This document shows positions 2,271 through 45,670 of a DNA stretch of 48,543 nucleotides, in pieces. The position numbers and the translations under genes are program-made. Source of the DNA: a virus; IMG/VR virus record IMGVR_UViG_3300045988_164290, positions 1 to 48,543 of that record. The stretch is one strand, 5' to 3'. The first letter of the stretch is position 1, and each line of letters opens with the position of its first letter. Under the pieces are notes generated by a model. The model made no database searches, was not told where the DNA came from, and saw only the letters and a program-made list of their open reading frames with translations.

Positions 2271-2862
2271 TGTTTCCACTCCTTATTTCATTTATTGTTG
2301 TCTGAATTTTTGTTTCAATTTCGGCTTGATTTTTACCTAATAATTGCCCAAATATTGCCATTAAACAAGTTGTTACTATGCTATCGCCAAAGCAATGATA
2401 TTGTGCCGAACGGCTTAAATTCTTGCCGATTTTGTATATGTCGTCGTCTTTAACGCCCATAAGCCTGCCACATTCTTTTTCGGTCAATTTGCGTACTCTG
2501 TATTCTCGCAAATTCGGCTCTACGATGCGGTTATTATGTTTTGGAGAACTGCCGTCGGTTGTCAGACAACCGATTGTTTCGTGCCTTATGCAAGAGTTCT
2601 GCTCGTCCAAAGCAAAAGGTTCTTTAAAAACTGTTTCTTCCATAATTTTAGGTTCTGTATTACCCCCCCCACACGTTGTCACCGTCGGCGCGCAACCGTC
2701 CGTGTCGTAAACCCTGCGCGTACAATCCATTGTTTTCTCGAATTTTCCACCGAGCCGACCTGCTATTTTACAATTCATTTTTTCTCCTATTACAACGTGC
2801 CAACACGCAATGTGTGCATCTATCGTCGGGCATATATCCAGCAGAGGTTCTACCCCCCCCAC
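2239..2862 (-). CDS. C-terminal segment of the split C5 DNA methyltransferase (TRD-like modules plus motifs IX-X)
   Basis: RRVYDTDGCAPTVTTCGGGNTEP, RKLTEKECGRLMGV and FGDSIVTTCLMAIF match the C-terminal half of C5-MTases. The frame is -1 relative to 2850..5048 and joins it at a G8 tract. Confidence 0.65.
   Translation of the reverse strand: MGGVEPLLDICPTIDAHIACWHVVIGEKMNCKIAGRLGGKFEKTMDCTRRVYDTDGCAPTVTTCGGGNTEPKIMEETVFKEPFALDEQNSCIRHETIGCLTTDGSSPKHNNRIVEPNLREYRVRKLTEKECGRLMGVKDDDIYKIGKNLSRSAQYHCFGDSIVTTCLMAIFGQLLGKNQAEIETKIQTTINEIRSGNNGKQQKTNTK
2663..2670 (-). repeat. homopolymer tract G8 (C8 on plus) inside the MTase 3' segment
   Basis: tacccccccca read directly; encodes CGGGN. Confidence 0.95.
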
Positions 2863-5048
2863 GGAAGTACCCGTGTCCTAATCGAACAATTACCTTTTCG
2901 TCCATAATTCAACTCCATTTTTGCCATTACAGTCAATCGTTCGGCACAATCCTTGCATCCCCCCCCCCTTTCAAAAGATGGTGATTTACCAAGCAACAAG
3001 CCATTTGCCTCATCAATGATAAAGTTGTCGCACGGACGAGTTCCGTTTTTCGTGAGGAGTGAGTTCGCTATACCGCTCCCATTAGTCGGCTCAAATTTAA
3101 AGCCGTTTCCACGCTCTGCATTTATTGTATTTCGATTAAAGTATGTTTCCAAAAGTTTCTCGCTTATATAATAATTTTGGGCAACATTGTTTTCAAGCAA
3201 ATCTTTTAGTTTTAAATTGCACCCAAGCGGTTTTGGGAACTCAAAATAATGATTGCCCAATACGCTTACCATAAAACACCTTTCACGATTTTGGGGTATT
3301 CCGAAGTTTGTAGCATTTATTACTTGCCATTTTGAGTGATAACCGATTTTATCTAAAAATGATACCCATTCAGCAAACGCTTTAATATTCTTATTCCCTA
3401 TTACTTGTTTAACGTTTTCCATTAAAAGAATTTGAGGTAATTCTGGGATTTCCTTCAAAAGCCTTTCAACTTCCCACAACAACCCACTTCTTGTTCCACT
3501 TCCCCTTTCCATTCCTTTACCAAGTCCCGCCGCAGATAAGTCCTGACAATTATGCACTATCGTGTTTTGCACTGTAAATGAGTGATTATTTTCAACTTCT
3601 ATATCGTATACATTCGATTGCCCACATTCGGTCACGCTTTTGATAGGAAACCAAATAAAACCATTTTCATAAAACGCTTTATCTTGCTTGCATACCTTTT
3701 CTTTCCAAATCAACTCGTATGTGTCGTGTTGATTTACAGTTCTACCCTCAATAACGCAAGTTTTCGCTCTCTTTGTATGATAAATTCTATACGGCATTCT
3801 ATATACTTTTGCAACACATTGACCAAGCCCATATATAAGTCCTCTGCTTATACTTGTTGCCTTATTATATCCCTTTATCACGCACCCGTCAGCACTCATA
3901 TAGCCGTTTAAAAACGAACGCAAAAGGTCTCTCGGCAAGTCCAATATAGTGTTTGTTAAATGCTTGTTTATCGCACCTTTCCCAAATTGTTCAACGAACT
4001 GCGAAAATTCTTTTTGCGGAATATGTATTTTATATATCGTCCGTTCTTTCACAATATTATATTTAAACAATTTATCGAGTTTTTTAACAAGGGTATCTAA
4101 CTTCTTAAAAGAACAGCAAATAACGATGCCGCCTTGTTTTCTTGTCCAGCCGTCTCCAATATATCGCCCTATTACATACCAAAAATCAGCATATTCCATA
4201 AGACCAGCCAATTCGTTTTTGTGACGTGCTTTTCTTCCGTCAGACCAATTATAAGTAATTCCATCCCACGAGGGAATTATTGCTTTTTGATTTATTGCGA
4301 CGCCCAAATAATCACTTTTTGTAAGTTGCACCGCCTCTTTCCAATATGGGTCTGAAAAAGTCCGACGAGAAAAATGTCCTACTCTACTCATAGTTCTTAC
4401 AAAAAACTTGTGATTTGTAGTGCATTTTATTTCGTCTATTGCCATAGCGTTAATTTTTAAAATGGGTTTAATACCATTGTTAAAAGTTTTCACGACTTTT
4501 TGATATGTATTATCGTGAGTAATAACCATCTCCCCAGCCTGAATTTTATCTATTGTTTTATAGCCACTATTCGTTAAGACAAGACTATCTGCCGTAAAAC
4601 AGGGGAATGAGTACGTCATAATATAGTTATATTTGTCGGTGTCTTTCACCTCTAAGTCTTCGCCTTTTATATTGCAAATTGAAACAAGGTTGTGCGAGGC
4701 TTGAATATTGTTGTAAATTGTCCGCAGTTTTTTCTCACCGTATCTATTCAACTGCTCTTTTGTGAGCGGCTGATTATAATCTGCACTGACGCCCATTTTA
4801 AAGAGAGTTTCAACAAGTTCGGGTTTGCCAAGTTCCTTTGAATAATCGTTATTATCTTCGGCAAAATGCAAATCTTTTAACGCCTGTATAGACGGTATCG
4901 CCCATTCGCAAGTTTTATAATGCTCAAACGGAACGCCCAAATATTTTAACGCTAATGCTTGACTGTCGTAACCGCTAAACAACGAAATAAGTCGTATAGG
5001 TTTTTCAATTTTAAACGGCTTTTCGCCGTCAAACATACTAATCTGCAT
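2850..5048 (-). CDS. DNA (cytosine-5) methyltransferase, N-terminal part, interrupted by an in-frame intein
   Basis: Motif I-like LISLFSGYDS. Motif IV is split as TYSFP|C...HN|CQDLSAAG. LLMENV is motif VI and GIPQNRERCFMVS is motif VIII. Confidence 0.85.
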   Translation of the reverse strand: MQISMFDGEKPFKIEKPIRLISLFSGYDSQALALKYLGVPFEHYKTCEWAIPSIQALKDLHFAEDNNDYSKELGKPELVETLFKMGVSADYNQPLTKEQLNRYGEKKLRTIYNNIQASHNLVSICNIKGEDLEVKDTDKYNYIMTYSFPCFTADSLVLTNSGYKTIDKIQAGEMVITHDNTYQKVVKTFNNGIKPILKINAMAIDEIKCTTNHKFFVRTMSRVGHFSRRTFSDPYWKEAVQLTKSDYLGVAINQKAIIPSWDGITYNWSDGRKARHKNELAGLMEYADFWYVIGRYIGDGWTRKQGGIVICCSFKKLDTLVKKLDKLFKYNIVKERTIYKIHIPQKEFSQFVEQFGKGAINKHLTNTILDLPRDLLRSFLNGYMSADGCVIKGYNKATSISRGLIYGLGQCVAKVYRMPYRIYHTKRAKTCVIEGRTVNQHDTYELIWKEKVCKQDKAFYENGFIWFPIKSVTECGQSNVYDIEVENNHSFTVQNTIVHNCQDLSAAGLGKGMERGSGTRSGLLWEVERLLKEIPELPQILLMENVKQVIGNKNIKAFAEWVSFLDKIGYHSKWQVINATNFGIPQNRERCFMVSVLGNHYFEFPKPLGCNLKLKDLLENNVAQNYYISEKLLETYFNRNTINAERGNGFKFEPTNGSGIANSLLTKNGTRPCDNFIIDEANGLLLGKSPSFERGGGCKDCAERLTVMAKMELNYGRKGNCSIRTRVLPWGG
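2853..2860 (-). repeat. homopolymer tract G8 at the junction of the two MTase ORFs
   Basis: CCG TGG GGG GGG TAG ends the 732-aa frame. One extra G, or a -1 slip, continues as ...GGVEPLLDICP. Confidence 0.95.
2959..2968 (-). repeat. homopolymer tract G10 inside the MTase
   Basis: gcatcccccccccctt read directly; encodes ERGGGC. Confidence 0.95.
3549..4601 (-). mobile_element. intein (351 aa) with LAGLIDADG homing-endonuclease domain, inserted in the PCQ catalytic motif
   Basis: CFTADSLVLT is block A and TTNHKFF is block B. WYVIGRYIGDGW and LNGYMSADGC are two LAGLIDADG motifs. NVYDIEVENNHSFTVQNTIVHN is followed by the +1 Cys. Removing the intein gives TYSFPCQDLS. Confidence 0.85.
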
Positions 5049-5313: not shown

Positions 5314-5342
5314 ATTATACTACTTTTGTTTGCCGTTGTCAA
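5314..5342 (-). promoter_or_regulatory. consensus promoter TTGACA-17-TATAAT
   Basis: The reverse complement reads TTGACAacggcaaacaaaagtagTATAAT, giving -35 at 5342..5337 and -10 at 5319..5314. Confidence 0.7.
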
Positions 5343-5869
5343 CCGTTTTTGCGATTATTCGCAAATTTTTTTATTTCGGTGGAAGATTTCAGAACGCAGA
5401 ACGGACGAACCCATAAAGCAAAAACATCATAGCAAGTCTTCACCTTATTTTTGAGGTCATCGACATAACAAACATAAACACTATATTCATATTCAGGACT
5501 TTCACCAGTCAAAGTCCAATACCGTTTGCCAATTTGTGGAATAATTTTGCAATATTTGCGATATTCGTTGATAGATATTAGCGATATTTTATCTACACAT
5601 TTACCATAATCATCACAACCGTCTTGGGTTCGCAAATCTCTTTCGAATTCAACAAGGTCGGATAAGTCTATTTCGGGAAATATGTCGTACATTTCTCGCC
5701 TTAAAGAGCATCCCTCCCAGTTATTTGTCATTTGCCCCCAAACACATATTTGATTAGTGTTATTTATTGCGAAAATTTTAATATTGCCGTTTTCGTCCTT
5801 ATCAAGAACAGTCCACAGCATATTTGCATACAATATGGTATCGCCAATTTTTGCCTCATTTGCTTGCAT
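5339..5869 (-). CDS. undiversified paralog of the DGR target proteins (DUF6273-like fold)
   Basis: GDTILYANMLWTVLDKDENG..., RYWTLTG... and the C-terminal WVRPFCVLKSS parallel the two VR-bearing genes. Only cagaacggacgaac matches the TR. Confidence 0.7.
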   Translation of the reverse strand: MQANEAKIGDTILYANMLWTVLDKDENGNIKIFAINNTNQICVWGQMTNNWEGCSLRREMYDIFPEIDLSDLVEFERDLRTQDGCDDYGKCVDKISLISINEYRKYCKIIPQIGKRYWTLTGESPEYEYSVYVCYVDDLKNKVKTCYDVFALWVRPFCVLKSSTEIKKFANNRKNG

Positions 5870-6344
5870 TTTTTTGTTTCTCCTTTAATCTGTTTTTTGC
5901 CTTAATATAATTTTCGTCAGGCACCGCACCCAACGATTTTAATTTTTCGTTCGGGTCGAGAAAGTCGCCGCAAATTATATTGTTTGCGAGTATTCCGCTT
6001 GCCAAAAGAATTGACAACTCGCTTGCTTGCGGAAACTGCGTTATAAACTGCTTTAAAAGCCGAGTTCGGCACTCGTGGCAGTTGTCCGCTTGAATATCCA
6101 CGCCAACAACGCTTGCGAGGGCTTTTAAGCCGTCTTTTTCGTTCTGACAAAACTTGTACTTACGGTCAAGTATTTCAACGAGGAAGTTCCCTGTTCCGCA
6201 GGACGGTTCGAAGAACGTCGTTTCAATATTTTCCCACATTTCGGCAGGAATAAGGTTGCACATATCCTTGACGATAAAGTCGGGCGTAAATACTTCGGCG
6301 AACTCCCGAACTCTCTTTTTACTTTTTATAAGTTTCTGCTTCAT
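5856..6344 (-). CDS. N6-adenine-MTase-like SAM-binding fragment (no NPPY-type motif IV seen)
   Basis: EVFTPDFIV, EPSCGTGNFL (motif I), VGVDIQ and ICGDFL are present. The ORF then ends at the start of the 5339..5869 gene. Confidence 0.6.
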   Translation of the reverse strand: MKQKLIKSKKRVREFAEVFTPDFIVKDMCNLIPAEMWENIETTFFEPSCGTGNFLVEILDRKYKFCQNEKDGLKALASVVGVDIQADNCHECRTRLLKQFITQFPQASELSILLASGILANNIICGDFLDPNEKLKSLGAVPDENYIKAKNRLKEKQKNASK

Positions 6345-9933: not shown

Positions 9934-10115
9934 TTTTCGGCAATCTCTTCCAATGTTTTTATTTCGCCGAGAATATCGTCGCAAACTTCTTTTTCTTCGT
10001 CGCTTTTGAGATATTTTTTGTAGATTTCTATGTATTGCCGCAATTTCCACAACACACTTGCTTCGCCAGCCTTGCGTCCTTCTCTATAAACTTTCATTTC
10101 TTCGTTGACATTCAT
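9930..10115 (-). CDS. hypothetical small protein (61 aa)
   Basis: ATG at 10115 after GGAAGGAG (MNVNEEMKVYREG...). Confidence 0.5.
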   Translation of the reverse strand: MNVNEEMKVYREGRKAGEASVLWKLRQYIEIYKKYLKSDEEKEVCDDILGEIKTLEEIAEK

Positions 10116-10135
10116 TGTAAAACTCCTTCCTTTTT

Positions 10136-10324
10136 TTAATCTAAATATCCTATGCCGTGATTTTCTTTGTACTCTTCCCACGCTCGTTTTATTGCCGTAG
10201 TCATCGGTACGCCCGTGAAGTCAGAGTACTTTCTTATCTCTTGCACAAACGCCTTTTGAAAGCCGATTTTTTCTTGATAATCGTTTGTTCTCGGGCGTTT
10301 TTTTTCGTTCTTTTCGCCGTCCAT
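10136..10324 (-). CDS. hypothetical small protein (62 aa)
   Basis: AAGGAGAC RBS and ATG start. Confidence 0.5.
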   Translation of the reverse strand: MDGEKNEKKRPRTNDYQEKIGFQKAFVQEIRKYSDFTGVPMTTAIKRAWEEYKENHGIGYLD

Positions 10325-10352
10325 TGTTGTCTCCTTTTATTTTTGTACCTTT

Positions 10353-10381
10353 ATTTTATCATACCTTACAAGGGTTGTCGA
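10353..10381 (-). promoter_or_regulatory. promoter TCGACA-17-TGaTAAAAT
   Basis: The reverse complement reads TCGACAacccttgtaaggtaTGaTAAAAT, placed upstream of 10136..10324. Confidence 0.5.
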
Positions 10382-10572
10382 GTGTTTTTACGTCCTTTTT
10401 TAAATTTTATTAAAATTTTTGCAAACAGCACTTCCAGGCGGCTAAGTTTAAACCATTCGCCCCGAACGTTTTTCTTTTTAAACCGCCTATGAAGCCGTTT
10501 TTCAAAATTATGATAATCTCTCACCCATTCATCATTGTCTACTTTTTTTGCTCTGAAAATTGATTGTCTCAT
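10366..10572 (-). CDS. chimeric remnant: YopX-like N-terminus fused to a T5orf172-like C-terminus
   Basis: MRQSIFRAKKVDNDEWV parallels MREILFRGKRVDNGEWV of 46383..46772. ...HRRFKKKNVRGEWFKL resembles the end of a T5orf172 domain. Confidence 0.45.
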   Translation of the reverse strand: MRQSIFRAKKVDNDEWVRDYHNFEKRLHRRFKKKNVRGEWFKLSRLEVLFAKILIKFKKGRKNTRQPL

Positions 10573-10576
10573 TTTG

Positions 10577-10750
10577 TCACACCTCTATATTTATTATTTT
10601 GCCCTTTTGTTTTAAAACGATTTTCAGGGTTTCGTTTTCGTGATATTTGCGAAGAATTCGGATAATTTCTTCCGCCTCTTCTTTGCAGGTTACGGACAAA
10701 ATCGTGATTGCGTTCTGCCCGTTAAAATGCCTTACGATTTCTAAGTACAT
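10577..10750 (-). CDS. small ORF (57 aa)
   Basis: GAGGTG RBS plus ATG; MYLEIVRHFNGQNAITILSVTCKEEAEEIIRILRKYHENETLKIVLKQKGKIINIEV. Confidence 0.4.
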   Translation of the reverse strand: MYLEIVRHFNGQNAITILSVTCKEEAEEIIRILRKYHENETLKIVLKQKGKIINIEV

Positions 10751-13568: not shown

Positions 13569-13882
13569 TTCACTTTGTTCTCCTTTGATAAAAATTTTAA
13601 ATCGTTTTCGGTAATTTTTTTATGCTTAAATGCTTCAATAACAATAAAGCCGTTTTTTTTGTGTTCGCCCTGTATTTCGTATGATAAAATATAATCGTTG
13701 TAACTCGTAGGGCGTTTCCCGTAAAAGTATGCGAACGCATTCCAAATCCTTGCCTTAAAGGGCTTTCGTCCGACTTTAAAAGCGACCCATTCGTCTCGTC
13801 CGTTCGGGGTGAAAAACCGTTCAACCGTGATTTTGTCTTTCAAATCGTCATCAAACCCTGATAGAAATTGCTGTATAATCAT
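13565..13882 (-). CDS. hypothetical protein
   Basis: 105-aa ORF with ATGA overlap. Confidence 0.55.
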   Translation of the reverse strand: MIIQQFLSGFDDDLKDKITVERFFTPNGRDEWVAFKVGRKPFKARIWNAFAYFYGKRPTSYNDYILSYEIQGEHKKNGFIVIEAFKHKKITENDLKFLSKENKVK

Positions 13883-14286
13883 TTCTTCGCTTTATACCTT
13901 TTTAAAAACTTTTCTGCCGTGTCGGCGGCGGTGCTTGCGTTGTGTCTGTACGCCGTCAGAATTTCGCCGCAGACCTTTTCAAAGTCGGTTGCCGTTAAGT
14001 CGGGGCGGCGGGATTTGACCGTATAGGCTATAATCAACTCGGGAAGTTTTACGCCGCAGTCGTAAGCGCGGAATAATTCCGCCGTAAATGGCATTTCGCC
14101 AAGTTCGCAGAATTTCCAACGCCCGCCCCATTTATCGGAAACAACTCCCGCCTGCTCGTCAATTGTCATTTCGTCGAAGCCGCTTTCTTGTTCGTCGCAG
14201 AATTTCGACATCGCAGAAGAAAGATTTTCGGCGTATTGATAATCAAATTCGCCCGTTTCGTCGTCTATTAGTTTAAAAATTTTCAT
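13879..14286 (-). CDS. hypothetical protein (135 aa)
   Basis: ATG at 14286 overlaps the target-gene stop (ATGA). The first 14 track codons are an out-of-frame reading of the VR flank. Confidence 0.55.
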   Translation of the reverse strand: MKIFKLIDDETGEFDYQYAENLSSAMSKFCDEQESGFDEMTIDEQAGVVSDKWGGRWKFCELGEMPFTAELFRAYDCGVKLPELIIAYTVKSRRPDLTATDFEKVCGEILTAYRHNASTAADTAEKFLKRYKAKK

Positions 14287-14924
14287 TTGTCGCCATCGGT
14301 CACATTTGCGGAAGATTTCAAGATGCAAAACGGACGAACGCCGCAGTCGAAGTTACAAAAATTGTAGTACAAAGTACCATTGTAGCCGACGTAACGGACA
14401 AGCTCGCTTTTATAATGGTTTTGACCTGAGTCTGGCGTGGCAGTCCACCACCACGAGCCAACGGGGAAGCGGTCAAGCGTTTTGACAAAACGGCGGTATT
14501 GTTCGCAAGTCAGAAGCCCTATTTTTTGCAGACAGTCGCCGAAATCGTTTAGCCCGTCATCGGCGGTTAGGTCGGTAGTGTGGGCGAGTATTTGCTCAAT
14601 ATCGAAACGTTGCAGAAATTCGCCATTTAACCACGAGCGAAGGCTCGATTTTGCGAAGTTCGGCGATTTATTGTCAAATACTTTTTCGATTATTTCGCCG
14701 TCTTCGTCTTTTAATAATTCTTTCGTGATGACTGCGACCCCGTCGGCGTTTTTGTCTAAAACGACCCAATCAAGCCCGCCGAAGTTCAGGACTTCGCCGA
14801 TCTCGAACTCGTCCGCCCTCTTTGCGTTTAAAAGTTTTATAATTTCGGCGTTGTCGATTTTTACGAAAATTTCGCCGTTTTTGCGTGTAATGTTTTTTTC
14901 GTTTATTGTCAATGTAATTTCCAT
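14283..14924 (-). CDS. DGR target protein 1 (DUF6273-like, C-terminal variable region)
   Basis: FEIGEVLNFGGLDWVVLDKNADG..., WWWTATPDSG...VRYVGYNGTLYYNFCNFDCGVRPFCILKSS; the 3' end matches the TR. Confidence 0.85.
   Translation of the reverse strand: MEITLTINEKNITRKNGEIFVKIDNAEIIKLLNAKRADEFEIGEVLNFGGLDWVVLDKNADGVAVITKELLKDEDGEIIEKVFDNKSPNFAKSSLRSWLNGEFLQRFDIEQILAHTTDLTADDGLNDFGDCLQKIGLLTCEQYRRFVKTLDRFPVGSWWWTATPDSGQNHYKSELVRYVGYNGTLYYNFCNFDCGVRPFCILKSSANVTDGDK
14329..14410 (-). repeat. DGR variable repeat VR-1
   Basis: Ungapped 82-nt match to TR 43836..43917. I count 12 mismatches, and all sit where the TR coding strand has A. Confidence 0.9.
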
Positions 14925-15222: not shown

Positions 15223-15399
15223 CCCTTTTTCTTGTACTTTCGTTCGCTCCCCTTATACTTTCGCCCGCTCTTTATCTCTTTTATTTATATTCTTTTTACG
15301 CCCCCGGGCGTTTTATTATGGAAAGCACAAACAACCGACAAAGGGGGAAGGAGGGGGAAAGGCTAACCCCTTGCCGCCGCCTGAATGGTTGCAAAACAC

Positions 15400-15551
15400 G
15401 AGAAGAGAAAAAAAGAAAAACGAAAAAAAAGAAAAGGAAAAGACGAAAAGCGAAAAGACAAACGAAAAGAAAAGTAATATAAAAGAAAAGATAAAAGAAA
15501 AGATAAAAGAAGAAAAGGGATAAGAAAAAAAAGAAAAAAGAAAAAAAGAGG
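15400..15551 (+). repeat. polypurine tract (~150 nt, >90% A/G on plus) with GAAAAG and AAGAAAAGATAA repeats
   Basis: Read directly. I count roughly 11 pyrimidines in ~152 nt. Confidence 0.9.
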
Positions 15552-26463: not shown

Positions 26464-27966
26464 ATGAGCGTATGGTTCGATTATAATAATAAGCCCGAAT
26501 ATCAAATGTGGGTTTTTAAGGAAAATCAAGAACAAACAAGAGGTGAAGTAAAACTTAGAAGATATAAAGACGGTAAGTTTGTCGTGACGGGAAAGGCGAC
26601 CCAAAATAAATTTTTCACATTGTCTCGCACAGTTTTTAAAAAGGGGAAATATTTAGTAAAAATTAAAAGAGACCTTTTTGAAAGTTCAACATCTGGGTTG
26701 TTGATTTACCTTGTAACACAGCCGTCTCAAAAAGAGTTGTATTTTCAAAATTCTGTACAAAACGATTTATTTTCGTACAATGCTCAAACTGGAATATTTG
26801 AAATTTACGAAGATACGCAATGTTTGATAAGTCTTGCAGTATACAAAGGATATAACAGCGAAAATTTATTTTACAAAACATTTGAAGTCAATATAAACAA
26901 AATCGACACAAATAATGTTGAGTTTGGTGTTGAGAAACTACATAATTATGCAAATCTTAATTATACTGTCGGTGGTATTACGATAAAATCTGTTTTAGGC
27001 GAAAACTCATTTACTATTACAGGCGGAACGACAACGGCTTATATTGAATTACGCATTTCAGACCAAACACTTTTTAAAAAAGGCAAATATTACTTTGACG
27101 TAAAAAGTTCGGGAAACGTTTTAAATGTCAACGAAAATAGAATTGCTCCATATATTGCAATATTTTCAACGGACGGGACAGAAGTAGGGCAAATTGCAAA
27201 CAGAGGTGGCGGCATAATTGAAGTTCCTTTTGATTTTACCGCAATCGTGTTTTTTATGATCCCCGAGATAGGCACAACTGTTATTGCTGATACAATAGAA
27301 TGGCATTTTTACAAACTTAGCGACCTTAACACAATTTACATAAGCGGTGCGGGCTATGTAGATTATCCGTTTAGAAACATTGACCGAGAAAGTCAACTTG
27401 GGTGGGATGCTCCCGTATGGGGATCGAGCCTAAAACGAACGCTTGGCTTTACACTTGAAACAGTAGACAGTGCGGCGTTTGGTGCGGTTGCGAGAGTTGA
27501 ACTTAACCTTAAATATTTAAACAGCGAAGATTATAAAGCCCTTGCTGATATGTCAAAAGAGCGAGCCGTTTATGTCACTTACTTCAACCGAGAGACTGGC
27601 AAGTGGGTAGAACGGCAAGAAATGTCGTTTACTTCGCAAGAAATTGAGAAGTTGTATGCGACAAACACAAATTATGTTGGCGTTTTCAATACCAAAATCA
27701 AACTCGTAGCGACAAATCGTGACAAGGCTGAAAAAACTTACACGATTAAACTTAACAGCAATTACACGGGCAGTACGGAAGCCGCTGTTGTGGCAACGGC
27801 TAACTGGTGCGAGGGATTTGAGTTGTCAGATGATGTTTTTACGCAAAGCGGCAAATCAATAAAATATTGGAGTACAACTGCCGACACTTTGGGCGGAAAA
27901 ACATATTTGGCAAATTCGCTTCTGACTGTTACTGACGATTTGGAGTTGTATGCAATATGGGAGTAA
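26464..27966 (+). CDS. distal tail protein-like, with inserted beta-sandwich repeats and a C-terminal Listeria-Bacteroides repeat-like domain
   Basis: Position after the tape measure gene. KKGKY(L/Y) is duplicated. The C-terminus reads YTIKLNSNYTGS...GKSIKYWSTT...DLELYAIWE. Confidence 0.45.
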   Translation: MSVWFDYNNKPEYQMWVFKENQEQTRGEVKLRRYKDGKFVVTGKATQNKFFTLSRTVFKKGKYLVKIKRDLFESSTSGLLIYLVTQPSQKELYFQNSVQNDLFSYNAQTGIFEIYEDTQCLISLAVYKGYNSENLFYKTFEVNINKIDTNNVEFGVEKLHNYANLNYTVGGITIKSVLGENSFTITGGTTTAYIELRISDQTLFKKGKYYFDVKSSGNVLNVNENRIAPYIAIFSTDGTEVGQIANRGGGIIEVPFDFTAIVFFMIPEIGTTVIADTIEWHFYKLSDLNTIYISGAGYVDYPFRNIDRESQLGWDAPVWGSSLKRTLGFTLETVDSAAFGAVARVELNLKYLNSEDYKALADMSKERAVYVTYFNRETGKWVERQEMSFTSQEIEKLYATNTNYVGVFNTKIKLVATNRDKAEKTYTIKLNSNYTGSTEAAVVATANWCEGFELSDDVFTQSGKSIKYWSTTADTLGGKTYLANSLLTVTDDLELYAIWE

Positions 27967-30026
27967 TGGTTTCTTTATCAACCGTAACAGGTGATAATAT
28001 TTATATAACAAAACATAACGGGCTTAAATCTTTCGAGTTTACTGAAAATATGACAAATTCCGCAACAGAACCTTTTTGCGGAGTAGTCTCAAATAGCGGA
28101 AGAATAATTATTGAAGATAAAAATTTAATACTTAAAAACGCTATTATAAATAATGTGTTGCAAAAATCGGGTTTTGAGGTTATAATAGGAAATTATGATA
28201 ACGGTTGGAAACCCAAATACTGCACAATGCATGCAAAAAAAAGCGATTATTCGGAAGATAATACCTATACAATAGAAATTGCAGATACAATTTCCAAATG
28301 GACTGATGTAAATTTTAATGGAATAAACTATATTGATAGAGAGGGAGTAGCAAATCTATACGAACTGTTGTATTCTTGTCTAAGCAATTACGGTTATTCT
28401 GATATTGCTGAGGACTTAAAAAATAGTACTGATGTATATTATTTCCCGAAATCGGATGGCACTTTTTTTGAAAGCACAGTTCCGAATTATTTAAAAAAAA
28501 TATACATTCCGTATACATTTTTAGATAAAACTTCATTTTATGATGCAATAACAAAAATATGTAAAGCCGCATTGCTTGTATGTTACAATACAAGAAGTGG
28601 GCAGGTTGTTTTTGTTCCGGCTATTGCAAAATGGAAATCAAAATTTTATGGGTTTTTAACTAATAAAAACTTTGCAGAGGAACCATTCAAAGATGTTATT
28701 ATAAATAATGTTTATGATAAAGTTTCTGTTTTGGCAAAAAATGCAAAAGAAACTCTTGAATATGCAACAAATGTCAACACAGCAAACGAAACAGTAAACA
28801 ATTATTCTATTTATAGCGACGCAAATGACGCTTATGCAGAAGAAAGATATAAATTTAATACATCAAATCATTCTCCAACATCGAGTTTATATACTTATTC
28901 AGCCGCTATTGCCGTAAATTCAAGGTTTTATCATACATTTAATATAATAATTCCGAAATATGACAATAATTATGCTCAGGAAAACTTAGATGTATTTTAT
29001 GGAATGAATCAAGATGAAACGCCTAAAATAGGTGTTTATGTAAAAGGCAAAAAACAAGTATGGAATACTTATGTAGGAGTTGAAATTGGCGGCAAAGATG
29101 CAAGTAAAATCCAAATTCAATCAGGAACTCAACCAACAGCATACATTACAGTTCCAACTCTTATTTTTGGAGACGAAAACCTAACGGTTAATGACTCATA
29201 TAATGAGCAGTTTACAACAAATGATGTTATTAAAAACGGGAAAGAACTTTGGAAAGAAGAAATAACGCAAAAAGGACATCCGACAACTTGGAGTGACGAT
29301 AATATTGCGGCAACTGTTGCAACGTCATTTATTCAGGCTGATGGAAGAAGTTCTTTAAATCCAATCATACAAACCGTAAAGACATCAAAGCCAACACGAA
29401 CTGCTGACGGCGGCTGGCAGTTTAGTTTGACTTGCGTATTAGGCGGAGATACACTACTATGTGCGACAGGAAGGAACCCCGAAAATTATTCAATATCAAC
29501 GCCTCCTGGACAATACTGGCGATGTGCAAGAACATTATATACCCCTGTTTCAATAGAATTTTCATTTAATGGAACAAAAAAGGTTATATCGCTTGAAGAT
29601 AAATATGTTTCAAGCGGCACAGGAACAACGAATGTTTATTTAATTAACGGCGAAAGTTCGTTATTGTCGAAAAACTCGCACATAAAAATAGATGGCGAGC
29701 AAAACGACACAAACCTTGCACAATATATTGCAAATTCCGTATACAATCATTACAAGGCAAACGGAAAACATACTATAACATTATCAATCGTAAACGGAAA
29801 AATTAAAGGGGAATATAAAGAGGGTTCTGAAATAATTACGATAGATTATATTCCTTGGGGATTTATAAAGTATGCCGATAATACCCTAAGACAACACAGA
29901 GACATAATTCGATGTAATGGTCGTTTTAATGTTAAAGGTGTAGATGAAAATATATATCGTTGTGTATCAGTATCAACTTCATACGACGGACAACTTTCGC
30001 AAAGAGTAATATTACAAGAAGAATAA
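27957..30026 (+). CDS. tail-associated / baseplate hub protein (Tal-like)
   Basis: 689 aa; the call rests on position only. Confidence 0.4.
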   Translation: MGVMVSLSTVTGDNIYITKHNGLKSFEFTENMTNSATEPFCGVVSNSGRIIIEDKNLILKNAIINNVLQKSGFEVIIGNYDNGWKPKYCTMHAKKSDYSEDNTYTIEIADTISKWTDVNFNGINYIDREGVANLYELLYSCLSNYGYSDIAEDLKNSTDVYYFPKSDGTFFESTVPNYLKKIYIPYTFLDKTSFYDAITKICKAALLVCYNTRSGQVVFVPAIAKWKSKFYGFLTNKNFAEEPFKDVIINNVYDKVSVLAKNAKETLEYATNVNTANETVNNYSIYSDANDAYAEERYKFNTSNHSPTSSLYTYSAAIAVNSRFYHTFNIIIPKYDNNYAQENLDVFYGMNQDETPKIGVYVKGKKQVWNTYVGVEIGGKDASKIQIQSGTQPTAYITVPTLIFGDENLTVNDSYNEQFTTNDVIKNGKELWKEEITQKGHPTTWSDDNIAATVATSFIQADGRSSLNPIIQTVKTSKPTRTADGGWQFSLTCVLGGDTLLCATGRNPENYSISTPPGQYWRCARTLYTPVSIEFSFNGTKKVISLEDKYVSSGTGTTNVYLINGESSLLSKNSHIKIDGEQNDTNLAQYIANSVYNHYKANGKHTITLSIVNGKIKGEYKEGSEIITIDYIPWGFIKYADNTLRQHRDIIRCNGRFNVKGVDENIYRCVSVSTSYDGQLSQRVILQEE

Positions 30027-30038
30027 AAGGAGCAAAAA

Positions 30039-32225
30039 ATGGCTACAATAGAAATAATCGATAGCGGTTTAGAAAAATACTCGCTTAAAAGCGATACAAA
30101 CGTTTTAGGGCGTATGTATGACAATAACGCCGAAGCGGTTGATATTATTATACCCGAAGCCGAGGCTGAAAGCGTTTGTTACGCAAACGTAATGTCTTGC
30201 GACGGCGAAGTGATTGACCGTATAAAAATCGAAAACAACTCATTGCCTATATCGAGCAATTTAACGCAGTATTGCGAGATTTATATCGGCTTTTCGTTTA
30301 TTCGCCCCGACGATACGGAAAAGCAAAGCGAACAGTTGAAATTCGGTTTTTTGTATGCCATTAAACCTAAGGACTTTACGCCCGAACAGTCCGACACCGA
30401 AAAAGCACTCGCAAAACTTATGGCAAGCGGGTTCATAAAACTCATTCAAGACGGCAATACAGTTAAATTTTACAACTGGAAAGATATTGTTGTCGGCACA
30501 ATTCATTACCAAGGCATAAAAGGCTTCAAAATCGTGGATGAATTGCCGACTGAAAATATTGACCCGCAAATAATCTATCTTGTAAAAGAAACAGTAGGCG
30601 AAGAATACGATTACTACAATGAGTATATTTATGTGGACGGGAAATGGGAATTGCTCGGGTCAACCCGAATTGATTTGAGCAACTACTATACGAAAGAGCA
30701 AGTTGATAAAATTATCGAGACTTTAACGGGCATTTTCAATGAAAAGGTTGATATTATCAACAAAAACATTGACAAAAAGTTTGACAAGATAGGCGGTACT
30801 GTAACGGGCGATGTGGTTGTTGGTGGAAACTTTACCGTTCAGGGCAAAACTACGACCGTAGACAGCGAAACTTTGCGTGTAGCCGACAAACTTATTGAGG
30901 TGGGCAAAGGCAACACAGCACCGCTAACTTCGCCCGCAGGGCTTTTTACGCCGAAATATGACGGGCAAAATAACGGTGGCATTGTTTATGATAATACAGG
31001 AACGGCTTATGTCGGAGATATTGTATTTGATAAAAACGGAAACGTTGATGTCGCAAAAAGTAATTTGCAGCCGATCGCAACAAGAGAAAATGCGGCAAGT
31101 TTTGAAGATAAGCATTTGCCCGTATGGGATAAAAATAATCAGCGATTAGCAGACAGCGATTATACTCCCGATGATTTTGTTGACTTGAAAACGCAACAGT
31201 CGATTGCGGGAATGAAAACGTTTACTGATGAAGTTCATTTCGGTACAACTCATTTCAGCAAAGACTTAAATGTCGATAATGCGGCGGTTAAGATATTCGA
31301 CAACCTGAAAGATTTAGTAACGCAATACAAGGCAGACAGTATCGTTATCGACAACGGCACAGGTTCATCGGCAGTTCAATATGTATTGACTTTACCGAAA
31401 AAGACGGGTATGTTGTTGTTAGATTTGTTTAAGTTTTCACAATTCGGAACGTCGAATGACGGTGATAATTGGACGCTTAACGACAGTACAAAGAACTTAG
31501 AAATTAAATATCAAGACGCAAATTCTCATTCGGGTTTACAGATTGAGAAAGATTATATCGAGTTGTCTGACATCAACGGAACAGGCACGGCAAAGATAAG
31601 TTTAGCGTCAAACATTCTCAGCCTTGACTCGGAAGATAAAGAGGGAAATCACAAACTCGTTAGAATATCTCCCGCCAAAGTAAGTATAGGAAACGGAACG
31701 GATGCGTTTTTAGTTGAAATCGACTCGTTGAGTACGAAGTTTAACAATCGTCCTCAGGTCAAAGATAACGGCAATTATGTAAACGTTGCATTGGTCGATG
31801 ATTTAAACAACTACGTTGCAAGTCAGAGCGAATCGGCGGATAAATATTATGCACAGATAACAAATGAAAATGGCATAATATCGGCGAGGATATTTAAGAA
31901 CGGCGAAGCGGACGTACAAAATTTAATCATCAGTAAAGACGGCGTTACGGTATTAGGAAAGAATGTTGCGAATACCGAACAAGTTGACGGCAAAGTTGAT
32001 AAATTGGCGGCTTCGCTCAGAAATCAAGCATACGTTCGTAACGCAAACGGCGAAGACAGCGGACTTGCATATACTTATACCGACGAAGGCAATACGTTGG
32101 CACTTAGAAATGCAAGTGGTCAGTTGCAAGTCAGCGACCCATCGCAAGATAAAGACGCAACGAATAAATCTTATGCTGATAACTTAAATGCTCGTTACGT
32201 CTCGACCTCGATATTAGGAGGCTAA
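30039..32225 (+). CDS. tail fibre protein
   Basis: ...KIGGTVTGDVVVGGNFTVQGKTTTVDSETLRVADKLIEV... is typical of phage fibre shafts. Confidence 0.55.
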   Translation: MATIEIIDSGLEKYSLKSDTNVLGRMYDNNAEAVDIIIPEAEAESVCYANVMSCDGEVIDRIKIENNSLPISSNLTQYCEIYIGFSFIRPDDTEKQSEQLKFGFLYAIKPKDFTPEQSDTEKALAKLMASGFIKLIQDGNTVKFYNWKDIVVGTIHYQGIKGFKIVDELPTENIDPQIIYLVKETVGEEYDYYNEYIYVDGKWELLGSTRIDLSNYYTKEQVDKIIETLTGIFNEKVDIINKNIDKKFDKIGGTVTGDVVVGGNFTVQGKTTTVDSETLRVADKLIEVGKGNTAPLTSPAGLFTPKYDGQNNGGIVYDNTGTAYVGDIVFDKNGNVDVAKSNLQPIATRENAASFEDKHLPVWDKNNQRLADSDYTPDDFVDLKTQQSIAGMKTFTDEVHFGTTHFSKDLNVDNAAVKIFDNLKDLVTQYKADSIVIDNGTGSSAVQYVLTLPKKTGMLLLDLFKFSQFGTSNDGDNWTLNDSTKNLEIKYQDANSHSGLQIEKDYIELSDINGTGTAKISLASNILSLDSEDKEGNHKLVRISPAKVSIGNGTDAFLVEIDSLSTKFNNRPQVKDNGNYVNVALVDDLNNYVASQSESADKYYAQITNENGIISARIFKNGEADVQNLIISKDGVTVLGKNVANTEQVDGKVDKLAASLRNQAYVRNANGEDSGLAYTYTDEGNTLALRNASGQLQVSDPSQDKDATNKSYADNLNARYVSTSILGG

Positions 32226-32226
32226 T

Positions 32227-33654
32227 ATGATAAAAAGCATTTTAGGTGGAAAGAGTAAGAATTTATGCGATCTTGCTTATTTACTTACATTACCACTTGA
32301 TAAAACGTTTAACAGTCAAGGATTTTGGCGAGTTTTCATCAATGCGGAGCCGAATACTACGTACACATTTAGTCGAGAAAATTCAAATCAAATAACAGAG
32401 TTTGGGAATTCTTATTTAGCAATAAGTACGTACGATGATATTATGCATAATTATTGGTTAAGTCATGGCTTGGTACCAGTTCTTAACTATAAATCGACAA
32501 CATTGACAACAAGTTCAGATGGTAAATTGTGGATATTGTTCAATGAGAACTTTTATAAGAATTACTGGCAAAAAAACCTAAACCCATTTGGTTATATCCA
32601 GCTCGAACTTGGTTCAACTGCTACTGAATATGTTCCTCACGAACTAACCTCGTATAAGAGTATAATGAAAGTAAGTGACGTATGTCAGTTAGTTGATAAA
32701 AGTAAGTTTACGGCAAGTGGCACAACAAATGGTATAACGTGGGTTAGTAATGGTGACGGAAGCATTACGTTAAATGGAACCTGCACGTATGGATTTGCAT
32801 TTAATCCATTTAATCAAGGAATTCCTGTTGATCAAACGCACTTCTATTATGTAAGTCCTTATATATCAATAAATTATAGTGTGAATAAAGATGGAACAGA
32901 TGAAACAGGACATATCGCGTTTATTAGAACATCGGCACATCCTACCAAATTCAATACTGTATTTTATATATGGATTGACAAAGATAAATCATTTTCAAAT
33001 GTAACCACATTTATCAATATAGACGACCTCACCGAAATGTTTGGAGCAGGAAACGAACCTAAAACCGTTGCCGAGTTCAAAGCGAAATTCCCGAATGATT
33101 ACTACCCATATTCGCCGAGTTGTTTTGTGACGAGTTATGATGAAAGAATGCCATGCAAGACGAAGAATTTGTTTAGTTCGTCAACGGAAGTTGGAACGTT
33201 AGAAGGTGGTTTTGGTGGACCGACTGTTACGAGGAATTTTGAAGAAAATAAGTGGTATCAAGGCTTTACAACAAATGGGTATTATAGTCCAACAACTGTA
33301 TTAGATTTTGATATACGTCCAAACTCGTTGTATGTATATAGTAAAGGTGCGGGTTACGGGATGTCGAGAGCAATAAAATGTGAGTCTAATACCGACTATT
33401 TTATATCTTGTTCATATAGCCACATAAGTGGCGGTGAAGGAAATGTTTATGTCGGATATTTTGATGAAGGTGGTAATTTTATATCAAATTTAAATATGGA
33501 CAGGAAATACAAATTTGTCATTACAACACCGAGTAATTGTAAGTGGCTTATTATAAATTTTGTTACACGAGGAGTTGGTAAGGTGTATTTTTCCGACATT
33601 CAATTAGTAAAAGGCACGACGGCAACAGATTACGTTCCATACGGATATGTATAA
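32227..33654 (+). CDS. tail fibre / receptor-binding accessory protein
   Basis: Two copies of the IQLE/VKG(S/T)TAT(E/D)YVP(H/Y) motif, which is common in phage receptor-binding modules. Confidence 0.4.
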   Translation: MIKSILGGKSKNLCDLAYLLTLPLDKTFNSQGFWRVFINAEPNTTYTFSRENSNQITEFGNSYLAISTYDDIMHNYWLSHGLVPVLNYKSTTLTTSSDGKLWILFNENFYKNYWQKNLNPFGYIQLELGSTATEYVPHELTSYKSIMKVSDVCQLVDKSKFTASGTTNGITWVSNGDGSITLNGTCTYGFAFNPFNQGIPVDQTHFYYVSPYISINYSVNKDGTDETGHIAFIRTSAHPTKFNTVFYIWIDKDKSFSNVTTFINIDDLTEMFGAGNEPKTVAEFKAKFPNDYYPYSPSCFVTSYDERMPCKTKNLFSSSTEVGTLEGGFGGPTVTRNFEENKWYQGFTTNGYYSPTTVLDFDIRPNSLYVYSKGAGYGMSRAIKCESNTDYFISCSYSHISGGEGNVYVGYFDEGGNFISNLNMDRKYKFVITTPSNCKWLIINFVTRGVGKVYFSDIQLVKGTTATDYVPYGYV

Positions 33655-33663
33655 GGAGATAAT

Positions 33664-34332
33664 ATGGAATTTAAGATATTTAAAAACGAAAATAGCAAAA
33701 TATTAAAAGAATATTGGCTTACTCAATCTGAATGGGACGCACTCGACAAGACGACTGTTCAAGAGGGAGATATATATCACATAGTCGGAATGATTGACAA
33801 AGGCGATTTATCAGCTGACGTGAATGCGAGTTTGGCGAAAGGAGATAGTTCGCTGCAAAAACCGACTGCAACGTTGGCGAAAGAGAGTTTTGTTAAGGTC
33901 GGAATAGACGGTACACAGAAGTTTGATGAAAGTTCGTATGTTGTTGTTCCTTCGGCAGACGGCACGGCGGGTCAAGTATTAAAGAAAACGGCAGCTGGAA
34001 CGGAGTGGGCAAATGAAAGCGGTGGCGGAAAGTTTTATAGACACAATTTAACTTGCAGCGACATAAGTAATAGTCAGGAAGTTGACATTAGTACCTATTC
34101 AACAAAACAAGAAAAGTTTACTGTTGATTATATTAAGGCACATCCAACTTGCTTAAATGGCTCAATTTCAACTGTGGTAAATGAAAACGGTCTAGAAAGT
34201 TTTGATAGACGAATTTTCCGTATTGAAGTTGACAACATTCCTCCCGCAGCCGACTTTGTAATCGAATCGGCTGGCATAACGCCAGTATCAAGGCAGTTAA
34301 AACTTACATCGGATAACGTAATCGAAGTTTAA
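33664..34332 (+). CDS. hypothetical tail-region protein
   Basis: 222-aa ORF with a GGAG RBS. Confidence 0.4.
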   Translation: MEFKIFKNENSKILKEYWLTQSEWDALDKTTVQEGDIYHIVGMIDKGDLSADVNASLAKGDSSLQKPTATLAKESFVKVGIDGTQKFDESSYVVVPSADGTAGQVLKKTAAGTEWANESGGGKFYRHNLTCSDISNSQEVDISTYSTKQEKFTVDYIKAHPTCLNGSISTVVNENGLESFDRRIFRIEVDNIPPAADFVIESAGITPVSRQLKLTSDNVIEV

Positions 34333-34920: not shown

Positions 34921-35304
34921 ATGGGCTTAAAAACGCAAAACTATAAAATTAAACAGTATGATATAACAATTCCGTGGGCTTATGCCATTATAAGGAAAAT
35001 AACAATAGACGGCAATAACGGAACGGCTGAGTTCGCAATTCAGGAAACACGAGAAGCGGCAAAATTTAAAGAGCCGTTTGAAAAAGTTGTTGTAAATTTT
35101 GTCGTAAACCGCAACGAAAGTCCTTATGTAACTGCTTATAACAAAGCAAAGAAAGTCAAGCAAAACACATTTTTCGACACTACAACAAAGAAAATAACTG
35201 TTATCAGCGAAGAAAAAGGCGTTTTGGGCGGCTGGGAAGATGATTTTTGCAATGATGAAATTTTGCAAAATAATTCACAAAAAGACTTGACAAATACTAT
35301 TTAA
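34921..35304 (+). CDS. hypothetical protein, paralog of 34359..34691
   Basis: See the paralog entry above. Confidence 0.5.
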   Translation: MGLKTQNYKIKQYDITIPWAYAIIRKITIDGNNGTAEFAIQETREAAKFKEPFEKVVVNFVVNRNESPYVTAYNKAKKVKQNTFFDTTTKKITVISEEKGVLGGWEDDFCNDEILQNNSQKDLTNTI

Positions 35305-35314
35305 GTGTTATAAT
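35287..35314 (+). promoter_or_regulatory. promoter TTGACA-16-TGtTATAAT
   Basis: TTGACAaatactatttaagTGtTATAAT overlaps the end of the preceding gene. Confidence 0.65.
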
Positions 35315-41951: not shown

Positions 41952-42610
41952 TTTATTTTCTTAATTCCTGCTAATTCCTCGAAACGATCGAGTTCGTTCC
42001 TTATTTGCTCTTGCGAAATAGTCGGCTGTATAAATATAGGCAACCCGTCGCTTGCTCTTTTCATTGAGTGACCGATTTTTTCTGCCGCCAACTTTTCGCT
42101 TATAGGTCTACTGTCGGCAAGTCCGCTTTCCGAAGTGATAAGGTTTATCGAAACAAGCGTATCATCTATCCACTGAAAAACTGCCGAATAATCATAAGCG
42201 GTCAGCAAATCGTTATAATCTTTAACGGTTAGCCCGCAAAACCCGCAAAACAGTTGCTTAGAGGCACTTACTACGGCATATTCGTTAATATGCCCCATAA
42301 GCCTAATAAACTGCTTATAGGCGGCTTTGTAGCCGTCAGGCGGTATTTCTTCGGGTTGTTTTATGATAGGAAAATCAATAAATTCGCCATATAACGCACA
42401 ACTGATTTTTGTCGGCGTACAGGTAGGCTTTATTTCGTTCCGTTTTGTTGCTCGTTTTGTGCGAACAGTATCGCCGTCTCTCGTTACCTTAGTGTCGGTC
42501 ACATCATCGTCTGATAAATCAAATACTGTTTCGTCAAGGCTTTTGATTATTTTATCGGCTTTTGCCTTAAACCCGTATTTGTCAGCCGTCTCAGTCGTTT
42601 TCTTCGGCAT
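41948..42610 (-). CDS. hypothetical protein (weak resemblance to small-terminase DNA-binding regions)
   Basis: 220-aa ORF; the ...KQLFCGFCGLTVKDYNDLL... resemblance alone does not support a call. Confidence 0.45.
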   Translation of the reverse strand: MPKKTTETADKYGFKAKADKIIKSLDETVFDLSDDDVTDTKVTRDGDTVRTKRATKRNEIKPTCTPTKISCALYGEFIDFPIIKQPEEIPPDGYKAAYKQFIRLMGHINEYAVVSASKQLFCGFCGLTVKDYNDLLTAYDYSAVFQWIDDTLVSINLITSESGLADSRPISEKLAAEKIGHSMKRASDGLPIFIQPTISQEQIRNELDRFEELAGIKKIK

Positions 42611-42782
42611 TTCCGCTCCTTAAACCGTGGTCGAGAATGTATTTTAATTCGCTTTCTTTTATACGCCACGTCTTACCCAATTTTACTCCCCGTATTTGCT
42701 TCTTTTTCAAAAGTGTATAGAGGGTTCGGTGAGCATAACCTAATTTTTTACTTGCCTCTTCCAGGGTGAAAACTTCTTCCAT
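42591..42782 (-). CDS. excisionase-family / MerR-type HTH DNA-binding protein
   Basis: FTLEEASKKLGYAHRTLYTLLKKKQIRGVKLGKTWRIKESEL. Confidence 0.6.
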   Translation of the reverse strand: MEEVFTLEEASKKLGYAHRTLYTLLKKKQIRGVKLGKTWRIKESELKYILDHGLRSGNAEEND

Positions 42783-42796
42783 TTTCTTATCTTCCT

Positions 42797-43753: not shown

Positions 43754-43766
43754 AAAGTCAAAAGAA

Positions 43767-43931
43767 AGGTTGCATACTCTTTTGCATAATGCGGACTGAT
43801 TTCGGCTTTTGCCTACTCTTTCTCCCTGTTTCCAGAACGGACGAACGCCGCTGTTGTTGTTACAATAATTGTTGTTCAATGTACCATTGTAGTTGACGTA
43901 ACGGACAAGTTCGTTTTACAGTATGCAACCT
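43767..43931 (-). repeat. 12-bp perfect inverted repeat bracketing the TR and spacer
   Basis: Plus 43767..43778 (aggttgcatact) is the reverse complement of plus 43920..43931 (agtatgcaacct). Confidence 0.85.
43836..43917 (-). repeat. DGR template repeat (TR)
   Basis: Lies between avd and the RT gene. Read in the VR frame it encodes NELVRYVNYNGTLNNNYCNNNSGVRPF, with 9 Asn codons. Confidence 0.9.
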
Positions 43932-43937
43932 GAATTT

Positions 43938-45669: not shown

Positions 45670-45670
45670 T

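Follow-up and report, generated by a model that had tools for sequence, protein, structure and literature searches.

DGRs of phages are read almost by default as receptor-switching devices, a reading that is called into question by the tgt2-type family of small targets. The tgt2 proteins of the gut phages nd4 and nd12 were described in 2023 as single-domain DUF6273 DGR targets (PMC10743442), and the same single-domain DUF6273 architecture was found in the small DGR targets of the Faecalibacterium phages Lelie and CP11 (PMC11792537) as well as in the second target of Toutatisvirus (bioRxiv 10.1101/2024.10.15.618418). In nd4 and nd12 one template repeat (TR) serves both a tentaclin and the tgt2 protein, for which Baykov et al. 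proposed a role as virion adhesin or receptor-binding protein (PMC10743442). A different role was inferred by the authors for the second DGR target of Quimbyvirus, namely a non-structural one in phage-host conflict (Benler et al. 2021, PMC8008677). Mtd of Bordetella phage BPP-1 lies at the tail-fibre tip, possesses N-terminal beta-prism and beta-sandwich domains, and its gene ends the tail module (PMC10743442).

DUF6273 is known from bacteria as well. The IgA peptidase of Thomasclavelia ramosa, a secreted and sortase-anchored protein of 137 kDa, carries a DUF6273 domain that is not DGR-diversified and whose binding partner is not stated in the paper describing it (PMC12402451). A link to early phage proteins is offered by the DUF3310 protein SaV, an early toxic protein of a lactococcal phage that has been tied to phage sensitivity to AbiV, an abortive-infection system (PMC8306868).

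In the present study a stretch of phage DNA of 48,543 nt, hereafter the window, was analyzed, which encodes a DGR, two diversified targets and a third, undiversified paralog. As members of the tgt2-type DUF6273 family already published, the targets resemble those of nd4, nd12, Lelie, CP11 and Toutatisvirus: each has one DUF6273 C-type-lectin-like domain, the VR occupies the 3' end of the gene and falls on a predicted beta-hairpin, and the gene is remote from the tail genes. However, whereas the tgt2 phages pair their small target with a large Ig-domain tentaclin, the window displays two small paralogs, no tentaclin and, in addition, the undiversified third copy. [quoted passage not shown] The published reading of tgt2 is receptor binding, whereas the context data presented here point away from a tail role. 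Judged by description and gene context, the second Quimbyvirus target is similar in being a C-type-lectin target on the opposite strand and away from the structural module, there amid methyltransferases and a nuclease, here in a block of replication and DNA-modification genes; Quimbyvirus, however, is a Bacteroidetes phage with an additional structural target beside its tail fibre genes, which the window phage lacks. Mtd shares the DGR-diversified C-type-lectin fold, the C-terminal VR and the same logic of Avd, TR and reverse transcriptase (RT), but the window targets have only a 40-residue N-terminal extension and are encoded on the opposite strand among replication genes. The window phage is distinct in having no structural or tentaclin target, two small paralogous targets 29.5 kb apart and a third copy kept as a probable former target.

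Genome structure and gene content

A direct repeat of 119 nt (1-119 = 48425-48543) terminates the window, which is therefore regarded as a complete phage genome, either circularly permuted or terminally redundant. The late genes occupy plus-strand positions 15889 to about 40947 and code for the large terminase, portal and capsid, a tape-measure-sized protein, four large tail-tip or fibre proteins and membrane proteins, the tail genes being assigned mainly by their order after the tape-measure-sized gene, as PHROG annotation of the tail region is nearly uninformative. No VR was found in these tail genes, whose proteins are encoded at 26464-34332 and which lie on the strand opposite to the targets. 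The minus-strand block runs from 14924 down across the genome ends to 41198 and comprises genes for a replisome organiser, a DnaC-like loader, RecT, a PD-(D/E)XK nuclease, a GIY-YIG protein, SSB and three methyltransferases (an intein-interrupted C5 enzyme, an N6/N4 enzyme and a short methyltransferase-like gene). All three members of the target family in the window are encoded in this block, so that the placement among minus-strand, non-structural genes given in the original prediction is borne out by the replication and DNA-modification neighbours, here as well as in relatives. An integrase or repressor was not seen in this genome. TerL shows only 20-22% identity to any GenBank phage, and no relative of it was detected among 185,579 GTDB representative genomes.

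Perfect TTGACA-N17-TATAAT sites occur three times in the genome, compared with 0.03 expected. One of them, a perfect sigma-70-type promoter-like site (44955-44983, minus strand), is situated just upstream of the VR1 target and the DGR cassette, where it overlaps the stop of the upstream methylase gene; another (5314-5342, minus strand) overlaps the stop of paralog 3 and faces the downstream intein-containing C5 methyltransferase.

DGR cassette and diversified targets

The cassette (42.8-45.0 kb) is arranged in the order promoter-like site, VR1 target, Avd, TR and RT, and all elements listed below are on the minus strand. The RT (42797-43753, 318 aa from ATG) matches RVT_1 (E 2.6e-15) and displays the motif LGNQTSQ at residue 183, which fits the DGR-type [LIV]GxxxSQ; the mechanically called RT ORF extends upward through the TR. 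Position and size of a protein of 116 aa from ATG (43938-44288) fit a putative Avd accessory protein, with Pfam scores for bAvd (21.7 bits) and 23S_rRNA_IVP (23.2 bits) both under Pfam's cut-offs. Between avd and RT lies the TR (43836-43910, up to 43917 for VR2), which is 75 nt long and contains 23 adenines.

Within this 75-nt core, VR1 (44325-44399) differs from the TR at 10 positions and VR2 (14329-14403) at 11, and every one of these mismatches falls on a TR adenine. Two paralogous genes thus receive, at their 3' ends, copies of the DGR template in which the errors are specific to adenines. Over 24 VR2-target orthologs, the entropy per column amounts to 1.33 bits in residues 175-199, compared with 0.25 upstream and 0.16 downstream, and up to 11 residue types are found at a single position; orthologs of the VR1 target from other samples likewise differ mainly in the VR. 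Since natural orthologs are hypervariable almost only inside the VR, the DGR is active in nature, and it is a real one of standard type. No hairpin or cruciform 3' of VR1 or VR2 was better than shuffled controls (z = +0.8 and +1.1, respectively). Such a hairpin is not a universal feature of DGRs.

The VR2 target (14283-14924, 213 aa) opens the minus-strand block and overlaps, with its stop, the ATG of the gene that follows (ATGA), whose product (13879-14286) has 135 aa; the VR1 target (44288-44926, 212 aa) opens the DGR cassette. Directly upstream of the cassette an N6/N4 DNA methyltransferase is encoded (44980-45705; phrog_67, E 4.5e-47; N6_N4_Mtase in relatives). The two targets are 39% identical and both pass the gathering threshold of DUF6273 (PF19789; 23.5 bits), the VR2 target with 46.2 bits (E 6e-12) and the VR1 target with 28.9 bits (E 1.3e-6). 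Together with paralog 3 they match phrog_9958, which has no function assigned, at E 1e-23 to 8e-38. The VR1 target gene behaves as a mobile single-gene unit, for it is the sole gene that one related locus, L006, has in common with the window.

In none of the three paralogs was a hydrophobic N-terminus or membrane segment detected, as the maximal Kyte-Doolittle mean over 19 residues was 0.8-1.1, compared with 2.3 in a membrane protein of the same phage. The absence of a signal peptide or transmembrane segment, already noticed in the original prediction, was thereby reproduced, yet it does not discriminate between sites of action, because virion proteins also lack a signal peptide. By Pfam, DUF3310 and Lar_restr_allev modules are absent from all three proteins, and neither Pfam nor the AF2 model revealed Ig, Fn3, beta-prism or beta-sandwich domains in the targets. 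A conserved disulphide was considered as an extracellular marker and rejected, C200 being the sole invariant cysteine, with no near-invariant partner.

The undiversified paralog

Paralog 3 (5339-5869, minus strand, 176 aa) is a stand-alone protein of DUF6273 type, probably with a C-type-lectin-like fold, and is undiversified in the window. It had no Pfam match at E <= 0.01, DUF6273 included; its homology was recognized with the family profile (P0003 at 1.4e-47), besides phrog_9958 (E 1e-23) and the shared fold. It aligns over its full length with the VR2 target (29% identity) and also end to end with the VR1 target, identity to the diversified paralogs ranging from 25 to 29%. With these alignments, the common phrog_9958 match and the adenine-only mismatches of the VRs, the ORF is real and the proposed family of three members, two of them diversified, holds. 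The same applies to the DUF6273 layout, in that the two longer proteins pass the Pfam threshold and paralog 3 has the same predicted fold. Of the motifs given for it, the GVRPFC(I/V)LKS end corresponds to a fixed strand; 'IGxxxW' proved imprecise, with nine residues between G and W, and WW(W) is not common to all three, paralog 3 having one W where the others have WWW.

As had been stated, the third copy retains only 14 nt of TR-like sequence, exactly GTTCGTCCGTTCTG (5397-5410, minus strand), which is an exact match to the TR 3' end and covers the codons for VRPFC. The genome contains the 11-mer GTTCGTCCGTT exactly four times, namely at the 3' ends of TR, VR1, VR2 and paralog 3. The adjacent VR-equivalent (5411-5485, minus strand), predicted to form a beta-hairpin of residues about 129-153, has lost its resemblance to the TR, with 45 matches, 18 mismatches at positions other than A and seven gap columns in the window allele.

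Whether this copy is a decayed target or was never one had been left undecided, and the comparison of alleles leans to the former. Orthologs in syntenic phages are 94, 64 and 61% identical to paralog 3, the window copy being 94% identical to P0001. At the DNA level the first 90 nt of the alleles are 97-100% identical. The same range applies to the final ~60 nt when window, L086 and L087 are compared; in L003 the agreement (90%) extends as far as the VRPxCVLKSS codons, and the allele ends 16 nt sooner. In between, roughly 75 nt just 5' of GTTCGTCC, the alleles are only 20-57% identical. The allele of L086 agrees with the TR at 60 of 78 positions, with 12-13 mismatches at A, five to six elsewhere and one extra codon, while in the same phage the DGR cassette is missing from its usual place and a 63-aa HTH gene (HTH_17) lies behind the same promoter instead. 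Because the L086 allele is still template-like while the hairpin segment of the window allele is not, the paralog-3 lineage has probably been a DGR target, and the window copy is most likely a former target now kept as a copy of fixed specificity. That the gene was never a target, the 14-nt match and the conserved C-terminus reflecting shared ancestry of the fold, would agree with the 18 non-A mismatches and seven gap columns of the window allele, with the low identity to the diversified paralogs and with the fact that the common 14 nt encode the invariant VRPFC motif. It is nevertheless very improbable, as the orthologous gene of L086 is clearly template-like, most of its mismatches falling on adenines, and as the three allele groups diverge sharply just 5' of GTTCGTCC and have gene ends that are 97-100% identical.

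Immediately upstream lies a methyltransferase-like gene (5856-6344, minus strand, 162 aa) with a weak N6_Mtase match and a match to the DNA methyltransferase family phrog_21201 (E 1.4e-11). The last 14 nt of this gene are shared with the beginning of paralog 3, and the pairing of both genes is conserved in all relatives seen (L003, L004, L005, L086 and L087).

Predicted structure

AF2 models were obtained for the VR2 target (pLDDT 91.6, pTM 0.83) and paralog 3 (pLDDT 90.6, pTM 0.87), and both show the same fold with identical order of strands and helices. Both diversified proteins have 40 extra N-terminal residues (three strands and a helix, pLDDT 71-80), which paralog 3 lacks. In the model of the VR2 target, residues 175-199 span the strands 175-179, 185-189 and 193-195, so that the VR constitutes the last, C-terminal beta-hairpin before the invariant VRPFC strand and the mutable codons lie on a hairpin that ends in the fixed GVRPFC(I/V)LKS strand.

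With Foldseek, the best solved match to this model was 9qa6, the N-terminal DUF6273 domain of the T. ramosa IgA peptidase (E 7.7e-8, TM 0.61 on the query), followed, with weak E-values, by the C-terminal domain of Legionella Lcl and C-type-lectin-like domains; the latter two were also the best PDB matches of paralog 3. Among viral models, DUF6273 proteins of gut phage MAGs and then DUF1566 proteins were matched. Neither sequence comparison nor Foldseek matched the window targets to Mtd, and a PDB sequence search with the VR2 target returned matches at chance level only. The structure prediction called for by the original prediction hence gave a C-type-lectin-like fold with the VR on the C-terminal beta-hairpin, and modelling shows each target as a small stand-alone C-type-lectin-like protein of DUF6273, tgt2 type.

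Relatives and their gene context

The best GenBank phage proteins are tgt2 of nd12 and nd4, with 38-40% identity. In IMG/VR 419 loci with relatives were found, and the best 80 of these 419 were examined, a set with one dominant lineage and crude ORF calls. In 13 dereplicated IMG/VR lineages 85 same-strand neighbours were scanned, and these included RT, Rep, DnaB, ParB/ParA, RusA, dUTPase, helicases and eight DNA-modification enzymes; no virion (head or tail) family was among the 25 neighbour families listed for the 13 lineages. In nd4 the tgt2 gene sits amid replication genes. In FP_Brigit, a cultured phage of F. prausnitzii, the gene for the family member AUV56625 holds third place in the early operon, between cro-like and exonuclease/RecT genes. 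Phages similar to nd12 show the order Dam methylase, zinc ribbon, DUF3310-DUF6273 protein, small membrane protein, Cys-rich protein, Rep-like protein, N6/N4 methylase, VRR-NUC, HNH and terminase. Several lineages possess a tandem pair of small paralogs beside Avd and RT, with both VRs matched to one TR, and the neighbours in these tandem-pair phages are ParB-like, DnaB, primase/helicase and methyltransferase genes. An integrase is present in one relative.

The family profile finds 5,420 cluster representatives, and the best 150 are mostly stand-alone proteins of 170-300 aa. The small DUF6273 family is therefore very abundant and consistently placed among replication and DNA-modification genes. 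In many relatives DUF3310-DUF6273 fusions occur, one 90%-identity cluster alone holding 23,439 sequences; an N-terminal DUF3310 (E 2.5e-16) or Lar_restr_allev module (31 bits, above the cut-off) was recognized in P0040, P0085, P0074 and P0090, such fusions being a feature of distant relatives. The Lar match may reflect a zinc ribbon alone. Matches of the DUF3310 module in the PDB were confined to designed armadillo repeats and were dismissed as spurious. When small homologs were sought in the anti-restriction 'leading' regions of plasmids, only large surface-type DUF6273 proteins were encountered, on C. botulinum plasmids (1063 aa).

Discussion

Gene context lends good, if circumstantial, support to the view that the targets in the window are not tail fibres. 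The best explanation overall, though adopted here only tentatively, is an active DGR with two C-type-lectin-like targets and one former target, which are likely soluble binders inside the cell. Encoded among replication and DNA-modification genes, the target proteins would be synthesized in the cytoplasm and, most probably, function as soluble binders within the infected cell, and the DGR would let the phage retune their binding to a variable factor of the host or of a rival element. A component of a restriction or abortive-infection system may serve as an example of such a factor, a role in counter-defence being a guess. An early cytoplasmic binder is favoured by the promoter site, the first-gene position and the DUF3310 and Lar fusions of relatives, taken together: one target lies behind a perfect host-type promoter-like site, another is the first gene in its block, and the non-structural context recurs in nd4, in nd12-like and tandem-pair phages, in the 13 lineages and in FP_Brigit. 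A precedent is given by the second DGR target of Quimbyvirus, located among methyltransferases (PMC8008677).

Several points speak against an intracellular role. Gene position and consensus promoters are circumstantial, and the window proteins themselves lack the DUF3310 and Lar modules, so that the link to SaV runs through the DUF3310-DUF6273 fusions of relatives only. To our knowledge, every C-type-lectin DGR target of known role acts outside the cell. This includes Mtd (PMC8008677, PMC10743442). Bacterial DUF6273 is found in secreted, wall-anchored proteins (PMC12402451), and in phages the domain also occurs in tentaclins, which are presumed to be exposed on the virion (PMC10743442). Methyltransferases are common here in many phage genomes, and adjacency to them may mean little.

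The targets could instead be accessory adhesins or receptor-binding proteins associated with the virion, Mtd-like in function, whose genes lie apart from the structural module and which are incorporated into the tail or capsid once synthesized. The C-type-lectin fold with its VR on an exposed hairpin would suit such a role, which is the one proposed by Baykov et al. for tgt2 of nd4 and nd12, the closest GenBank relatives; the N-terminal extension of 40 residues in the diversified copies, absent from paralog 3, could dock onto the virion, the TR of nd4 and nd12 is common to tgt2 and a presumed virion tentaclin, and among viruses most DGR targets belong to the tail (PMC8144416). We nonetheless consider this somewhat unlikely, as the target genes lie on the strand opposite the late operon, no tail or head family was listed among the neighbours in the 13 dereplicated lineages, and two further lineages, nd4 and FP_Brigit, have replication or early neighbours, the gene of FP_Brigit in an immediate-early position; moreover, the targets have no beta-prism, beta-sandwich or Ig domain, and modules of early proteins are fused to the family in relatives. 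Improbable in our view are moron-like, released lectins, which would have a host-type promoter of their own, be expressed maybe also in a carrier state or during lysogeny, be released through lysis or in vesicles and bind bacterial or mucosal carbohydrates to the benefit of phage or host. The perfect sigma-70-type promoter-like site before the cassette, the integrase of one relative and the VR1 target gene, which moves singly as seen in L006, would be in accordance with them, and according to a 2026 preprint a DGR-diversified DUF6273 tentaclin of Mushuvirus is found in vesicle proteomes of Faecalibacterium, its DGR being active during lysogeny. The vesicle evidence, however, concerns large Ig-domain tentaclins and not the small family, an export signal is lacking, neither integrase nor repressor was seen in this genome, and the genes of the VR2 target and of paralog 3 overlap their neighbours in the operons to which they belong.

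The tentatively preferred intracellular binders can be taken further, to a DGR wholly devoted to early intracellular proteins. It would then constitute a programmable module for counter-defence or host takeover that is re-aimed by adenine mutagenesis, with paralog 3 as a 'frozen' specificity beyond the reach of the DGR; we regard this extension as unlikely. If it were true, tgt2-type proteins of gut phages would have been misread as receptor-binding. If an intracellular role as such applies, a sizeable share of the DGR activity of gut phages serves something besides adsorption, and viruses perform targeted hypermutation of intracellular binders. If the proteins are virion adhesins instead, early operons can contain dispersed receptor-binding genes, a point relevant to annotation and to the prediction of host range. 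The question is open to experiment in FP_Brigit, the cultured Faecalibacterium phage with a member in its early operon.

The novelty implied by the original prediction was overstated, since tgt2-type DUF6273 targets and the non-structural target of Quimbyvirus had already been published. In the literature cited here we found no mention of the placement in early blocks across many lineages, of the SaV- and Lar-like fusions or of the former-target allele. As a minor observation, adjacency to a methyltransferase gene recurs, yet methyltransferases are common in this genome region; the neighbouring genes may form a functional module of two genes.

Apparent loss of the DGR cassette and apparent mobility of its target

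In the close relative L086 the entire DGR cassette, comprising target, Avd, TR and RT, is absent (L086 8200-8507 vs. window 42610-44983). A 63-aa HTH_17 gene takes its place, flanked by the promoter and, downstream, by the 220-aa gene that border the cassette in the window. An HTH_17 domain is also present on the RT ORF of the syntenic relative L003. Together these features suggest loss of the cassette through deletion. The VR1 target gene appears to be mobile as a single-gene unit, because it is the sole part common to the window and L006, a 131-kb IMG/VR contig, in which positions 9971-10643 match window 44275-44947 with 90% nucleotide identity over 675 nt, with a differing VR and unrelated flanks.

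Architecture and neighborhood of the target family

Small DUF6273 paralogs were found to be paired in tandem (about 200 + 178 aa) immediately upstream of Avd-RT in the loci L008, L009, L019, L057, L065, L081 and L083, where the VRs of both copies match one TR and the mismatches lie nearly all at adenines. In many family members the VR is followed by a conserved helix at the C-terminus, among them those of L052 (8088-8981), L023, L036 and L071, with a consensus of about KRAEAVDMMKHIAAAWDI..EEVF; this helix is absent from all three window proteins.

The stop codon of the VR2 target and the ATG of the next gene overlap as ATGA (14283-14286, minus strand). This following gene (13879-14286, minus strand) is kept in L003 as well as in the likewise syntenic L004, and its product of roughly 135 aa, for which no family match was obtained, is a possible partner protein.

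On the C. botulinum plasmid pCLD (L089 4851-10654) a 1063-aa DUF6273 protein adjoins a large N-6 DNA methylase, with a TrbC/VirB2 gene nearby. The 1063-aa protein is carried on C. botulinum toxin plasmids, and these are a further instance of DUF6273 adjoining a methylase, here on a non-phage element.

Genome organization and variation among relatives

As an exact direct repeat of 119 nt is located at both termini (1-119 = 48425-48543), the contig represents a phage genome in its entirety, with a minus-strand block that runs uninterrupted across the genome ends. The divergent blocks are separated by a gap of 960 nt, in which a low-complexity, purine-rich tract with A/G runs and a degenerate periodicity of 10-23 nt was observed immediately upstream of the terminase (15393-15547). 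It yields spurious long ORFs on both strands and could function in packaging or as an origin.

In L003 (7349-8356) and L004 a gene for a tyrosine recombinase (Phage_integrase) separates the GIY-YIG gene from the paralog-3 region. The window lacks a tyrosine recombinase gene, and lifestyle may therefore differ within this phage group. An intein (Hint_2, Intein_splicing, LAGLIDADG_3) splits the C5 cytosine DNA methyltransferase gene of the window (2850-5048, minus strand); the presence of the intein varies, as the gene of L086 possesses it and those of L003 and L087, another syntenic relative, do not. Inside the late block, a perfect match to TTGACA-N16-TATAAT (35287-35314, plus strand), the third such site in the genome, precedes small genes and genes for membrane (lysis-like) proteins.
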